Virus record (IMG/VR): IMGVR_UViG_2690316002_000015
Source: a virus
Taxonomy: Duplodnaviria > Heunggongvirae > Uroviricota > Caudoviricetes
Strand: one strand, 5' to 3'
DNA length: 20,832 nucleotides
In this document: piece by piece, positions 6,001 to 12,000 of the stretch
Layout: each line of letters opens with the position of its first letter
How positions within the stretch are numbered: the first letter of the stretch is position 1
Position numbers: made by a program

Positions 6001-9000
6001 GTGTTCTGCCATGCGCTCCTGAAACTCAACATCGTCATCAAACGCACGGATAATGGCTTTTTTGCTGGCCCCGTGGCGTTGCAAATGATCGATGCATAGC
6101 GATTCAAACAGGTGCTGGGGCAGGCCTTTTTCCATGTCGTCTGCCAGTTCTGCCTCTTTCTCTTCACGGGCGATCTGCTGGTAGTGACGCGCCCAGCTCT
6201 GAGCCTCAAGACGATCCTGAATGTAATAAGCGTTCATGGCTGAACTCCTGAAAATGGCTGTGAAAATATCGCCCGCGAAATGCCAGGCTGATTAGGAAAA
6301 CAGGAAATGGGGTTAGTGAATGCTTTTGCTTGATCTCAGTTTCAGCATTAATATCCATTTTTTATAAGCGTCGACGGCTTCACGAAACATCTTTTCATCG
6401 CCAATAAAAGTGGCGATAGTGAATTTAGTCTGGATAGCCATAAGTGTTTGATCCATTCTTTGGGACTCCTGGCTGATTAAGTATGTCGATAAGGCGTTTC
6501 CATCCGTCACGTAATTTACGGGTGATTCGTTCAAGTAAAGATTCGGAAGGGCAGCCAGCAACAGGCCACCCTGCAATGGCATATTGCATGGTGTGCTCCT
6601 TATTTATACATAACGAAAAACGCCTCGAGTGAAGCGTTATTGGTATGCGGTAAAGCCGCACTCAGGCGGCCTTGATAGTCATATCATCTGAATCAAATAT
6701 TCCTGATGTATCGATATCGGTAATTCTTATTCCTTCGCTACCATCCATTGAAGGCCATCCTTCCTGACCATTTCCATCATTCCAGTCGAACTCACACACA
6801 ACACCATATGCATTTAAGTCGCTTGAAATTGCTATAAGCAGAGCATGTTGCGCCAGCATGATTAATACAGCATTTAATACAGAGCCGTGTTTATTGAGTC
6901 GGTATTCAGAGTCTGACCAGAAATTATTAATCTGGTGAAGTTTTTCCTCTGTCATTACGTCATGGTCGATTTCAATTTCTATTGATGCTTTCCAGTCGTA
7001 ATCAATGATGTATTTTTTGATGTTTGACATCTGTTCATATCCTCACAGATAAAAAATCGCCCTCACATTGGAGGGCAAAGAAGATTTCCAATAATCAGAA
7101 CAAGTCGGCTCCTGTTTAGTTACGAGCGACATTGCTCCGTGTATTCACTCGTTGGAATGAATACACAGTGCTTATTCGTACTAATAAAATACCCAATTTT
7201 CTGTTTCTTGGTTGTGTCCAAAGTTATATTCAATATCTGGTGTTGATGTATCAATATTCTTCATACCATCAACAAGAGTTGATACAACAGCCAAATCTTG
7301 TTTGATTCTCATTAAATGGTATTTCTTCCGGCGCAATAAACTTTCAATGGCAAGTTTCTTCGTTGGGAATGCAAAAGATCTTTCTGCATTTTTTGCTACT
7401 TTCTTAATTGCATATCTATTTCTCCTTTGTTTCCATTCCTGTAACCACTGATTTGGTGCTGGTTTAAAATTAACAATCCAATGCGCAGGAACCAACCATG
7501 CATAATGCTCTGTCTGATGAAAAGCTATATATTGAAGTGCGAATATTTTTATCCCATCTTCTTCAACTGTCGCCTGGAATCTCCAGAAAACAGGCATTCC
7601 ATCATGTTCAGTTTCTGATTCAGGAAAAGGTACGCTCCATGATTTTGTCATATCTCACCTCAAATAAGTGGTTTGCTGCCTAATTTCATTTTCTGGCGAC
7701 CAACACAAGTCACCTCGCCGTCAGTTGTTTTGATTTCCGGTAGCCTGCCGCGTAAATGGCTACGTTTGGAAGACATACACCAGTTTCTGGTTGCTTATGT
7801 CCAAACTCATTCGCGTACACAATGGCCGCTCGCTCCAGATTGCGTCTGTATTCTTTCTGTTGCCAGATCACGTCCTGTGCCATGAACTTAATTGGCTTAG
7901 CGTCTTCTATGCGCTCAGGCGTTTCGTGAGTACCTTTAGCCTGAATCTGCGCTCTGCTTAGAGTAGGGCGGTGTAATACTTCTGAACTTATTGCTTCTTC
8001 GCGGGCCAGTACGCCGTTAGCTAATGCCTTTGCCTTTAAACGCTCACGACGACGAGAACGTGAATTGCCTTTGAACTGAGTTCTGCGTGTCATATAGACC
8101 TCCTGATGAACTTTGGTGGTGTGGTAGGTGGGAGACCCATTTCGACCTGTTTCGGCCTACTTCAATTCGGCAATAGTCCCGCAGGCCTCGCCGCTTTACG
8201 TGCGACATATTCCCGTCCATGAACCCTTCACCACACCCCAAAGTTCACTTTGGTTATTGCGCTTTGTCAGCGCCGTAGATTCATATTCGAATCGTTGTAT
8301 ATTTACCGCCCTGGTGAGTAATGCGTCCTGCTGATGGGTGAGCTTTATCGGAATGATAAATTAATGGCAATAGCAAAATGATAAATTCTCTTGGTTTTCA
8401 AATATCGTATTGATTCTTATGGTGTTTTATTTTGTTGTAGGAATTCGACAGGATAAATAAAGAGATTTGAGGGAGATCTGGATTGCGTTGTTTAGCAAGT
8501 TGTATCTATTTATTTTTCAACAAATACAATTGGTTATGTGTTTTTAGGTGTGGGATCGTGAGGCAAAGAAAACCCGGCGCTGAGGCCGGGTTAATGCGTT
8601 AATGCTGGGGAGTGATTTTTTTGTTGTCTGTTGGCTGGGTATTTTGTGGCGGCGCTTGCAAAGTGGAAGGCTGTTGCAAAGGTGCGTGGTCTGACTTTAA
8701 AGCTGATACCAGCCCGGGAATCGCAACTATTACAGCGATAATGACACTAAAAATGGCTAATCGTATAGAAATACCCGACTGAACACCACTAATTGCGGTA
8801 TTAACCCCTGTTATTTGTCCTTGAATTCCTTCGAATCTCCCATTAATTGCTTTTATATCGCCAGCAGCGCTATCCATCTTTCCATCGATCTTGGACGATA
8901 GAGAGCTTATGGCTGCATTAAGTGATGCAAATTGGACATTAACGCTTTCACGAGATAGAGCCATGTCAGCCCTAATGGAAGAAGCAATAGACTCCATCTC

Positions 9001-12000
9001 TGCTTTATTAGCAGCTAAGCGAGCATCAAGTTCCTCTCTGCTGATCGTTCCCACTTCTTCCTCCGTTTGTGGCGGTTTTATGTAATTATTTTGCACCTTG
9101 GTGGGAGAATTATCAAATTCAGCCTCAAAATCGGAACCGCCAACAACCTTCAACCTCCGGCTTTCAGATATGTTGGTGTCTTGCTTTCCATGATTATTTA
9201 AATTACTGTCGTCACTCATAATAGCTCTACGGTGAAAAATGATTCATTTTTATGAAGTTCATTTTTAGGGTCTTCATTATCTTGCAATATCCCTATAACA
9301 CTATACAGCCCTTTAGCTGGGACCCTAATTTCTTTCAATGTTACTATTACCTGTCCGCCAACCCCTGTTTCAAAATGGCTATCTTTCGTATCGATGAAAA
9401 GTGAAACTGATTCCGAAGAGCCGTCAGGGAATTGAATTTCCTCACCTTTTTTTATAATTAGGTGCGCGGGGATTACCATAATACCCAAATTATATCTTGA
9501 ATTTGGTTTCAACCCGATCATACCAACCCTGAAATCAATTGATAGCCGCGCAGGAAATTCATTGCATGTAAAATTAAGCGTCGGTTGGTTGGGTTCTTCG
9601 CTGCTATCAAATGGGGTTATAAAAGATATTCTTTCTAAATTAAGTGCCATAAATTCTCCTGCATCGCTGTATGCTCTACGAGCATCTCTGCGATCATCCA
9701 TCATCCAAACGTCTCTTCACTCATCCGAAGAAGCAGCAATCCGGGTCAGCACGCACAAGCTCAAGCGCATCAGTCAGCGAAAGTTCAGTACTGTACTGAT
9801 GCCATTTCATATCCTTCCGCATCCAATAGATTTTCCATCTATCCAGAGAACGTATGTACTTGATTCTTGCTGATGGCAGGATGTTTGTTTCACCTGGGTT
9901 GCCCTGCCACACGGGGCGCTGTTCGCCGATATCTATCGTTTGGTCATTGATGCTATAAACAATATCCAGTTCATTGCGGATATGTTCAGGCGGCCTTATG
10001 CTTTCAATGAATTGGTGAACTTCTTTTTTGACCGCTTGATATTCAAGGTCAGTGAACGCCATCTATCCTCCTCACCCAAACGTTTCTTCTGGCCACTGGT
10101 TACCAGCTATGTGACGATGAAGTCACGAACTTTTCAGCCACTCCCTTGCCTCGATGTCATCCAGATGGCGAGATTGCTTCAGAATACCAGCTACATACTC
10201 CACCTTTGCTACTTGATGATAAGGCAACGTTATAGGCCTGTGATCCTGGTTAATGCTTGTAAATTGGTATTCTCCATCTCTGTCATAGCCAAGAACCTTA
10301 ATCATGTTGTGTCCTTCAACGGTTCTGACAAACACCTCGTCACCCGGGAATACTTTGGTGTTAGGCTCAATGAGTACATATTCTCCTGATTTTATTCTGG
10401 GCCACATGCTGTCTCCTTTCACACGAAGACCAAAGGCATCTGGATCATCGCTATAAATTTTGAGCCACCCATCGCGCTCTTCGGTCATCTCGATGGCACC
10501 ATCAACACCAAGAATTGCCTCACCAACCACGCGCACTAACCCTTTTCTTACCTGACCGACAAAAGTTAAAGAATCTGAGCATGATGCAATTGGTGTTACA
10601 TCATGTACCAAATCAAGCCACCCATTAGGTAACCCAAGCGCGGCTTCAAATTTTCTTGCTAGTTTATCCCCTATGTTTCGAGTGCTTTTTTCACCGGAGA
10701 CTTGCGTGAGTTGAGAAGGGCTAACCCCAAGCTTATCGGCAAAGCTTGCATTAGTGTTACCCGCGATTTTTTTATGCTCATCTAGCAAAAACGCCAGATT
10801 CGATTTGCGAATATCTTTGTTTTCCATCTCACAATTTTCCCTCTATTTAGCAAATGGATAAATACGCAATATGATAAATTTACATTGCGGATGATTTATC
10901 AAAATGGTAAAGTTGTTCTGTGTGATAAACGGAGGCACTAATGAGTAATGAACTACTACGCTGGCGAAAAGAGGCTTCTAGTGAGGAATGGAAGCGACTC
11001 GCCGCATTAGCGAAAACTTCAGTTGGCTATCTTGACCAGATTGCATATGGATTTCGAAGAGCTTCCCCTGATAAAGCGAATGCAATCGAAGAAGCTACTC
11101 GTAATTTCACGGGTTATAAACCTGTGAAAAAGGAAAACCTAGTGTTCGTATCGCGTAGAGCATCGGCTGCATAAGTAACACCGCTCTTTTCACAATGGAC
11201 ATTCGTCCTACGTCGCTGACAAAGCGAGTCCCAATATATCTGACCAACTAAGGCCATATGCGTTTCCACGCATACCTTTCAACTAGCTATTCACTATTGG
11301 AAATCTTAAGAAATGGAACAAACAAGTTACAGCAAACTATCACAGCGAGAAATTGATCGCGCTGAAACTGATTTACTCATCAACCTGTCAACGCTTACCC
11401 AGCGCGGTCTGGCAAAGATGATTGGCTGTCATGAATCGAAGATAAGCAGAACGGACTGGAGATTTATTGCTTCGGTCTTGTGTGCTTTCGGAATGGCATC
11501 AGACATCAGTCCGATTAGCAGGGCTTTTAAGTATGCGCTTGATGAAATCACAAAGAAAAAATCCCCGGTGGCCGCCGGGGACTCTAAGCAAATTGATATG
11601 CAATTCTGAGGGAATTACTGGATCAATCCACAGGAGTCATTATGACAAATACAGCAAAAATACTCAACTTCGGCAGAGGTAACTTTGCCGAACAGGAGCG
11701 TAATGTGGCAGATCTCGATGATGGTTACGCCAGACTATCAAATATGCTGATTGAGGCTTATTCAGGCGCAGATCTGACCAAGCGACAGTTTAAAGTGCTG
11801 CTTGCCATTCTGCGTAAAACCTATGGGTGGAATAAACCAATGGACAGAATCACCGATTCTCAACTTAGCGAGATTACAAAGTTACCTGTCAAACGGTGCA
11901 ATGAAGCCAAGTTAGAACTCGTCAGAATGAATATTATCAAGCAGCAAGGCGGCATGTTTGGACCAAATAAAAACATCTCAGAATGGTGCATCCCTCAAAA

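Follow-up and report, generated by a model that had tools for sequence, protein, structure and literature searches.

IMG/VR record IMGVR_UViG_2690316002_000015 holds 20,832 nucleotides (nt) of viral DNA, referred to here as the window, which represent the early half of a BP-4795-like, Shiga toxin (Stx)-type lambdoid prophage (78% query coverage and 97% identity to AJ556162). This analysis concerns three genes, here named A, B and C, that lie co-oriented on the minus strand between the repressor gene cI and an intrinsic terminator preceding oL. The original prediction placed them in a slot between cI and N corresponding to that of rexAB in phage lambda, and regarded them as one candidate cassette, so far undescribed, that would be expressed in the lysogen and serve in exclusion of or defense against phages. 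Position, open reading frame (ORF) calls and a terminator scan bear out this layout. The single cassette is not borne out: the interval very probably contains two independent accessory ("moron") units within the repressor operon, gene A alone and the pair B-C.

Upstream of the interval, cI (10123-10827, minus strand) encodes a repressor of 234 amino acids (aa) with a Peptidase_S24 match (3.8e-16), a weak helix-turn-helix (HTH) match and membership in phrog_4 (transcriptional repressor). The cI region is 98.8-98.9% identical at the nt level to H-19B and BP-4795 and is of the H-19B/BP-4795 immunity type. All features that follow are on the same strand. Gene A (9721-10062, 113 aa) is preceded by the Shine-Dalgarno sequence GAGGAGG at about 10066-10074. 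A spacer at 9651-9720 separates it from gene B (9216-9650, 144 aa) and contains the Shine-Dalgarno sequence of B, AGGAG. Although the longest ORF of B extends over 9216-9704 (162 aa), the ATG at 9650, which follows the Shine-Dalgarno sequence, fits all homologues and the HK542 annotation. Genes B and C overlap by 4 nt as ATGA, in agreement with the original prediction. A good Shine-Dalgarno sequence had been ascribed to each gene; those of A and B are strong, but the one of C (8599-9219, 206 aa) is weak, and the start of C relies on the overlap with B. Similarly, the AT-richness ascribed to the whole region applies clearly to B (37.5% GC), but not to C (43.3%) or A (45.9%) when compared with cI (44.7%) and the window (47.0%).

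The unit is closed by the GC-rich terminator at 8562-8592, the equivalent of Timm, composed of a hairpin at 8571-8592 (folding energy -17 kcal/mol, z = -2.9) and a T-run to about 8562, which aligns with the site annotated as Timm in HK542. A minus-strand scan from cI to 8592 revealed no other terminator-like site. Promoter-like sites inside the interval were no commoner than in shuffled sequence, and we claim no pLit-like promoter. An Rfam scan identified no RNA element inside the A-B-C interval. Judged by their conservation, A, B and C are real genes, because the proteins are conserved across genera while synonymous sites are saturated; the ratio of nonsynonymous to synonymous substitution rates, where computable, is about 0.1, as expressly found for B and C, which are under purifying selection.

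Genes A and B-C differ both in breakpoints and in distribution. Pairwise DNA comparisons with BP-4795, an Escherichia coli O103 prophage and HK542 located sharp mosaic breakpoints at 8591-8593, 9681-9719 and 10071, indicating that A and B-C assort independently. BP-4795 shares 7600-8591 and 10072-11300 with the window and carries three other ORFs in place of 8592-10071. The O103 prophage has the same cI, shares 7659-8593 and 9682-11300 and keeps gene A, with genes for a RuvC-like protein and Stk and a small ORF in place of B-C. HK542 shares only 8473-9719, where B-C and the terminator directly follow a lambda-type cI. The mosaic unit of A extends over about 9682-10071, and the spacer between A and B belongs to the B-C unit: homology to HK542 continues up to 9719, and the Stk-type allele diverges at 9681. 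The BP-4795, Stk-type and HK542-type alleles all switch sequence at the promoter-proximal edge of the Timm hairpin (8591-8593), where homology to BP-4795 stops at 8591 and homology to the Stk allele at 8593. This terminator may be a conserved recombination joint of the hotspot.

HK542, HK244 and E. coli from chicken and human carry B-C immediately after a lambda-type cI, with no A in between. Conversely, A occurs without B-C in the order cI-A-RuvC-like-Stk, as in 933W, and strain RM9088 carries a lambda-type cI followed by A, B and C. Among 5426 complete E. coli genomes, B-C is present in 51 and A in 227, and 13 have the full arrangement with this cI. Two complete genomes, those of E. coli EM18-18-42 (H85) and CFSAN064035 (H86), have IS1 insertions that interrupt the B-C interval.

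The original prediction found no resemblance of any of the three proteins to a known defense protein. This fails for A, which matches the PADLOC candidate PDC-S43 over its full length (7.2e-42, positions 1-115 of 115). Protein A also matches Pfam DUF3024 (2.4e-31, 108.7 bits versus a cutoff of 24.9) and belongs to phrog_3467. It is thus a full-length member of both DUF3024 and PDC-S43, which are labels and not functions. An AlphaFold2 model of A (predicted local distance difference test, pLDDT, 90.8) comprises a five-strand antiparallel sheet with one helix before and one after it (alpha-beta5-alpha), and we found no catalytic motif in A. Literature on DUF3024 consisted of the 933W expression table only, and that on PDC-S43 of a list entry of predicted systems in one preprint; we found no anti-phage report for either.

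DUF3024 is widespread, with 291 loci in many phyla, and outside enterobacteria no conserved neighbors were detected in 80 diverse genomes or at 66 diverse loci. In enterobacterial phages, A is the conserved first gene after cI, and in phage contigs it is nearly always located behind a repressor-sized ORF of 234-245 aa. At least eight different modules follow it there, among them RuvC-like plus Stk, a 177-aa protein, B-C, ParA-like ATPases, an NYN-domain protein, the candidate PDC-M63, a HicB-type toxin-antitoxin (TA) system and other pairs of a small protein with a tail-anchored coiled coil. In a comparison of Erwinia with E. coli, A has 59% identity and its RuvC-like and Stk neighbors have 86% and 77%, respectively, indicating that the A-RuvC-like-Stk adjacency was re-assembled and not co-inherited. 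On this distribution, A is a single-gene unit without an obligate partner that heads a hypervariable slot and is conserved there. Most likely it is an independent small binding protein, either a single-gene defense candidate or a mere framework gene of the hotspot. Among the genes that follow DUF3024 in phage contigs, the second commonest encodes the 177-aa protein (locus L155, 4032-4565, and 12 similar IMG/VR loci), which has no Pfam or PADLOC match. At locus L157 this protein is split into ORFs of 121 and 63 aa, resembling a frameshifted copy.

Protein B is soluble by prediction, with no membrane helix by hydrophobicity (Kyte-Doolittle maximum 1.0). It has no Pfam, NCBIfam or PADLOC match, and its only family is phrog_5893 (function unassigned). 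The family has very few members: 12 clusters were recovered from 5.8 billion clustered proteins, and an exhaustive profile search of 1.84 billion representatives returned 23 matches, of which about 15 were full-length (140-150 aa). The AlphaFold2 model of B (pLDDT 70.7, predicted template modeling score 0.65) is a seven-strand immunoglobulin (Ig)-like beta-sandwich. In a BFVD structure search the best matches were all to uncharacterized phage proteins about as long as B, one source being Anoxybacillus phage A403. We propose B, so modeled, as a putative partner or sensor of C.

Protein C belongs to phrog_5820 (function unassigned) and is predicted to consist of four segments. Residues 1-58 (9046-9219) form a variable N-terminal segment, the type of which co-varies with the class of the upstream partner; it contains RLKVVGGSDF as a motif (9127-9156). 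Residues 59-152 (8764-9045) form a conserved coiled-coil core, as judged from the alignment and heptad register, ending in Gly-rich heptads (IDGKMDS AAGDIKA INGRFEG IQGQITG VNTAISG VQSGISI), and homologues vary by exact 7-residue indels. Residues 153-174 (8698-8763) form a single C-terminal transmembrane helix (RLAIFSVIIAVIVAIPGLVSAL; maximum Kyte-Doolittle 19-mer of 2.71 at residue 156). Residues 175-206 and the stop codon (8599-8697) form a Pro/Gln-rich tail in the alignment, presumed periplasmic. The tail motif QPIIIQVPQ is present in most C homologues and absent from this E. coli allele. Neither B nor C has an N-terminal hydrophobic segment, so that B and most of C would be cytoplasmic and C tail-anchored.

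Comparison of C with Pfam, NCBIfam and Protein Data Bank (PDB) profiles yielded only sub-threshold matches of coiled-coil type (Baculo_PEP_C, SlaB, MakE and SmhB). Assignment of C to the ClyA-type alpha-pore-forming toxins was rejected as not significant (MakE, E = 0.006 and 15.7 bits versus a cutoff of 360; SmhB, E = 0.035). Assignment to Baculo_PEP_C was likewise rejected at 19.6 bits versus a gathering threshold of 38; C homologues reach at most 29.7 bits, though some are annotated so. A paper on convergent false positives among coiled coils (PMC3695513) mentions Baculo_PEP_C.

For the pair, we examined about 35 distinct loci in a sampling that took in 48 IMG/VR contigs. In almost all of them the C homologue lies directly behind a prophage repressor or DUF3024. 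The order repressor, partner, C homologue holds in every lineage sampled, with one exception given below; besides the IMG/VR contigs these were Citrobacter (with a Rac-type repressor), Cedecea, Salmonella, Enterobacter, Pectobacterium, Yersinia and metagenomic lambdoid contigs, and partner and C usually overlap by 4 nt or are separated by a few bases. B-C is present in Stx- and lambda-type prophages of E. coli and in relatives from Klebsiella, Enterobacter, Salmonella, Citrobacter, Yersinia and Pectobacterium. The repressors ahead of C or B homologues belong to different families (S24 cI, short Rac-type HTH and lambda cI), and B itself occurs with several of them, indicating that the module is tied to the repressor promoter and not to one particular repressor.

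The core of C is constant, and the upstream partners come from at least five unrelated families: the B beta-sandwich, proteins of 98-101 aa, proteins of 96-97 aa, Zn-ribbon-like proteins of 110-120 aa with four Cys residues, and a 92-aa protein. The N-terminal 40-100 residues of C switch in step with the partner class. B-family partners go with the motif L[KR]V[VI]GGSDF, Zn-ribbon-like partners with L[KR]AVPNCGSGID, and the remaining partner classes with other N-terminal motifs. From this co-variation we infer that the N terminus of C may be a partner-specific adaptor, and that the coiled coil and membrane helix may form a shared effector or scaffold. The possibility that the 97-99-aa partner is a truncated B was rejected, as no similarity was found.

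Genes for C-type coiled coils with a single C-terminal helix thus recur behind a small partner gene, the two directly following a repressor, and we propose them as a group of repressor-linked pairs. Architectural analogues consisting of a coiled coil of 96-175 aa and one C-terminal helix are encoded at loci L216 (3897-4534), L220 (3903-4591), L012 (5400-6224) and L101 (4001-4788). These analogues recur after DUF3024 or cI, each preceded by a small partner that is Zn-ribbon-like, B-like or unrelated. No sequence similarity to C was detectable in the short proteins of these four loci. A Rahnella 175-aa protein was rejected as a C homologue on the same grounds, homology being undetectable, and is an architectural analogue only.

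The lone exception to the repressor-linked position is a Yersinia locus (L008, 5269-6699), where partner and C lie beside DinI and tail genes at the tail-fiber end. In Erwinia aphidicola (L011, 4071-7130), a DUF3024-RuvC-like-Stk block is located beside dinI at the tail-fiber end of another prophage type. The dinI/tail-fiber end is a second landing site for DUF3024-RuvC-like-Stk and partner-C blocks.

Earlier work has recognized the region between cI and N as a mosaic hotspot, with rexAB and bstA among its accessory loci. Siblings with the same cI and terminator flanks carry matches to experimentally validated defense systems in this slot, either Stk/PD-T4-6 or a PD-lambda-2-like module, the Stk allele matching the PD-T4-6/mad6 models. 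The BP-4795 slot matches PD-lambda-2_A (HigB-like toxin, 2.5e-42), PD-lambda-2_B (HTH, N-terminal part, 3.8e-50) and PD-T4-9_C (3e-11), and PD-lambda-2 and PD-T4-9 are described as validated TA-like abortive defense systems (bioRxiv 10.1101/2022.05.12.491691). These matches fall on the "hypothetical" ORFs 20-22 of BP-4795/H-19B (L002, 2702-4043, corresponding to window positions 8592-10071). By these TA-type matches, ORFs 20-22 look like an unannotated TA-type defense module in classic Stx1 phages.

Expression together with cI in the lysogen, as originally proposed, is consistent with the lack of a terminator from cI onward and with the 933W expression table, in which the block cI-DUF3024-RuvC-like-Stk changes expression together. 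The cI gene would be the first gene of a presumed pRM transcript carrying A, B and C. Since both units lie between cI and Timm, read-through from pRM should express them in the lysogen. An accessory module of this kind, expressed in the lysogen from the repressor operon and consisting of a soluble and a membrane component, is already known. Nor are the genes themselves wholly undescribed, since A is DUF3024/PDC-S43 and is present in 933W, and B-C was deposited in 2007 as hypothetical ORFs of the HK542 and HK244 immunity regions. B, C and the alternative partners match no characterized or candidate defense family tested, so that in the PADLOC and structure checks the claimed lack of resemblance stands for B and C and falls for A. 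In scans of A, B, C, the alternative partners and the C homologues with Pfam, NCBIfam, PHROGs and PADLOC, A alone was assigned to a named family, and the others reached unnamed PHROGs or sub-threshold coiled-coil matches. Likewise, B and C had no match to a characterized non-defense function in Pfam, NCBIfam, PHROGs or PDB profiles.

As a whole, we tentatively favor a reading in which the two units are independent and B-C is a Rex-like exclusion pair expressed in the lysogen, B serving as the sensor and C as the effector in the membrane. It is somewhat probable that B-C acts against phages in some way; the specific sensor and membrane-effector (pore) mechanism is doubtful. In this mechanism, B and C would form a translationally coupled pair, and B would dock on the N-terminal segment of C. 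In the resulting complex B, the specificity or sensing subunit, would hold C inactive. A product of a superinfecting phage would engage B, upon which C would oligomerize via its coiled coil and compromise the inner membrane, so that infection is aborted or its early steps are blocked. Gene A would not be needed by B-C. A broader proposal, which we regard as speculative and rather unlikely, is that the C family is the constant membrane effector of an unrecognized modular class of prophage defense in Enterobacterales. Here a tail-anchored Gly-zipper coiled-coil C would permeabilize the inner membrane and be hard-wired to the prophage repressor promoter, and interchangeable sensors (the Ig-like sandwich, the Zn-ribbon protein and several small proteins) would plug into the matching N-terminal adaptor of C. 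The class would extend to the 96-175-aa tail-anchored analogues described above.

Several observations weigh against the exclusion-pair reading. Position and sibling alleles speak for a defense module expressed in the lysogen, but for A, B and C themselves the evidence suggesting defense consists of position and architecture only. PADLOC v2 contains no model for B, C or any partner, even as a candidate. Literature searches covering HK244/HK542, the protein accessions and Baculo_PEP_C found no functional report on B or C. None of the accessions is present in the DefensePredictor supplements. Co-transcription of A, B and C with cI is a point that we infer from the absence of terminators and the 933W data. 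The membrane-permeabilizing role of C is suggested by its architecture and by the sub-threshold ClyA-type matches, and those to MakE and SmhB may be coiled-coil composition effects only. The model of B has only moderate confidence, and its fold is generic. The tail motif conserved in most C homologues, presumed periplasmic, hints at a periplasmic role that is not explained by a sensor and effector. Moreover, the IS1 insertions in the B-C interval indicate that the pair is dispensable and possibly costly.

That A, B and C form one obligate three-gene defense system acquired as a unit is very improbable. The genes are indeed adjacent, co-oriented and closed by one terminator, and the order of A followed by a pair recurs, given that A precedes analogous pairs of a small protein and a coiled coil in Rahnella and in phage contigs. 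However, the repressor is followed by B-C alone in most lineages, separate breakpoints divide the pair from A, and A is found ahead of at least eight unrelated modules and lacks a conserved neighbor outside enterobacteria; the Erwinia and E. coli identities given above show that even its adjacency to RuvC-like and Stk was re-assembled. That the genes are bor/lom-type morons serving host fitness or virulence, for instance through envelope or stress functions, and have no part in phage-phage conflict appears equally remote. Virulence factors are among the accessory genes expressed in lysogens, this prophage is of Stx type and C is a predicted envelope protein, but the alleles of the same slot are defense or TA-type systems, swappable partners around a constant core are a typical trait of conflict systems, and the module also occurs in non-pathogenic backgrounds (HK542 and plant-associated Pectobacterium).

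Two further alternatives concern B-C alone, and we consider both unlikely. The pair could mediate superinfection exclusion at the step of DNA entry, similar to P22 SieA or HK97 gp15, with survival of the cell instead of abortive infection. This would agree with C as a predicted single-pass membrane protein, with the Pro-rich periplasmic motif in most homologues and with expression from the repressor operon. By contrast, B and most of C should be cytoplasmic, there being no signal peptide and the sole hydrophobic helix being C-terminal; the variation lies in the cytoplasmic partner and the N terminus of C, not in the periplasmic tail; and the E. coli allele described here lacks the tail motif. 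Prophages carrying the module have very different virion and replication modules, indicating that B-C is not bound to one injection apparatus. In addition, the PHROG matches of the pair are confined to phrog_5893 and phrog_5820, with none to superinfection-exclusion families (SieA, SieB, gp15 and Cor). Alternatively, B-C could be a TA-like addiction module, or one that modulates the switch of the prophage itself, as proposed for RexA and 434 Hex. Two small genes overlapping by ATGA, one of them encoding a potentially toxic membrane protein, their strict linkage to the repressor gene, the cost suggested by IS1 interruptions and the precedents of repressor-operon products acting on the switch (RexA and 434 Hex papers) are all in line with this. 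Yet partner class does not follow repressor family: B is found with lambda cI, H-19B cI, other S24 and short Rac-type repressors, which speaks against a direct effect on any one repressor. In Yersinia, one copy has no repressor nearby and lies beside DinI and tail genes. TA behavior and defense are, moreover, not mutually exclusive.

The exclusion-pair reading invites comparison with known systems. Like lambda rexA-rexB, B-C is located after cI and before Timm, would be expressed from pRM in the lysogen and comprises two genes, one for a soluble and one for a membrane component; in HK542 and HK244 the pair takes the place of rexAB downstream of a lambda-type cI. Unlike RexB, a polytopic protein of four helices, C combines a single C-terminal helix with a long coiled coil. 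Searches of A, B and C found no Rex-annotated Pfam, PADLOC or PHROG family and no match to a solved structure in the PDB, which includes RexA. Mycobacteriophages Butters and Sbash encode prophage-expressed pairs of a cytoplasmic and a membrane protein (gp30/gp31 in each) near the immunity region that defend against heterotypic phages, and their membrane partners are multi-pass. These pairs resemble B-C in layout and belong to unrelated hosts; their proteins are presumably unrelated as well. RexA is described in its structure paper as an alpha/beta DNA-binding dimer, unlike B, which is modeled as an Ig-like sandwich.

The 933W Stk/PD-T4-6 module is allelic to B-C; cI, the DUF3024 gene and the terminator junction are common to both, but the effector of the Stk module is a eukaryotic-type protein kinase accompanied by the RuvC-like protein, without similarity to B or C. 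The PD-lambda-2-like module of BP-4795/H-19B fills exactly the 8592-10071 interval in the closest sequenced phage and differs in consisting of a HigB-like toxin and an Xre-type regulator, with neither a membrane protein nor DUF3024. BstA of Salmonella prophage BTP1 shares strict synteny with the repressor, is transcribed from the cI promoter and acts in abortive defense. BstA differs in that it is one large protein, DNA-associated and equipped with a DNA self-immunity element, and has an unrelated sequence.

Beyond the terminator, the distal edge of the slot is the oL/pL region (8345-8395), where the repeat ATGATAAA occurs at 8353 and 8378. These oL-type repeats match one copy at 10871 in oR, and the ST2-8624 record carries OL and OR annotations. 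The antiterminator gene N (7710-8093, minus strand; N_peptide 2.1e-15, phrog_271) is the first gene of the pL operon. Between N and cIII, a 156-aa ORF (7181-7651, minus strand; phrog_1636, function unassigned) lies in the most AT-rich stretch of the window (about 36% GC) and adjoins a DUF2528 gene (6662-7030, minus strand), which is named "ssb" in BP-4795, a label that the family match does not back. A lambda cIII thermoregulator is located at 6544-6602 (minus strand). On the plus strand at 15688-15889, a C4 antisense RNA, isrK and c4 a1b1 target elements indicate a second immunity circuit of antirepressor type. Three tRNA genes (Met, Arg and Arg) followed by STnc100 and the anti-GcvB small RNA AgvB occupy 19108-19690, an arrangement typical of the region upstream of stx in Stx phages. 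Two masked runs of N are present, at 12276-12576 inside the replication gene O and at 19981-20297 just past the tRNA/AgvB region; the second is located approximately where the BP-4795 match spanning stxA1 stops (query 19978).

In conclusion, the most interesting result is the pattern of a constant C core with swappable partners. A constant effector, a swappable partner and a matching adaptor would provide a genetic handle on sensing specificity, and this layout may help in the interpretation of other two-gene morons. DUF3024 (PDC-S43) may be flagged as a defense candidate only through its neighbors. The interval from cI to Timm, with its junction at the terminator edge, can be mined systematically as the P2 and P4 hotspots were, and B-C is a good experimental target. 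If B-C excludes phages, it would be a defense system missed by current predictors, having no PADLOC model and no Pfam match above threshold, and it would be of relevance to phage therapy and to the ecology of Stx phages.

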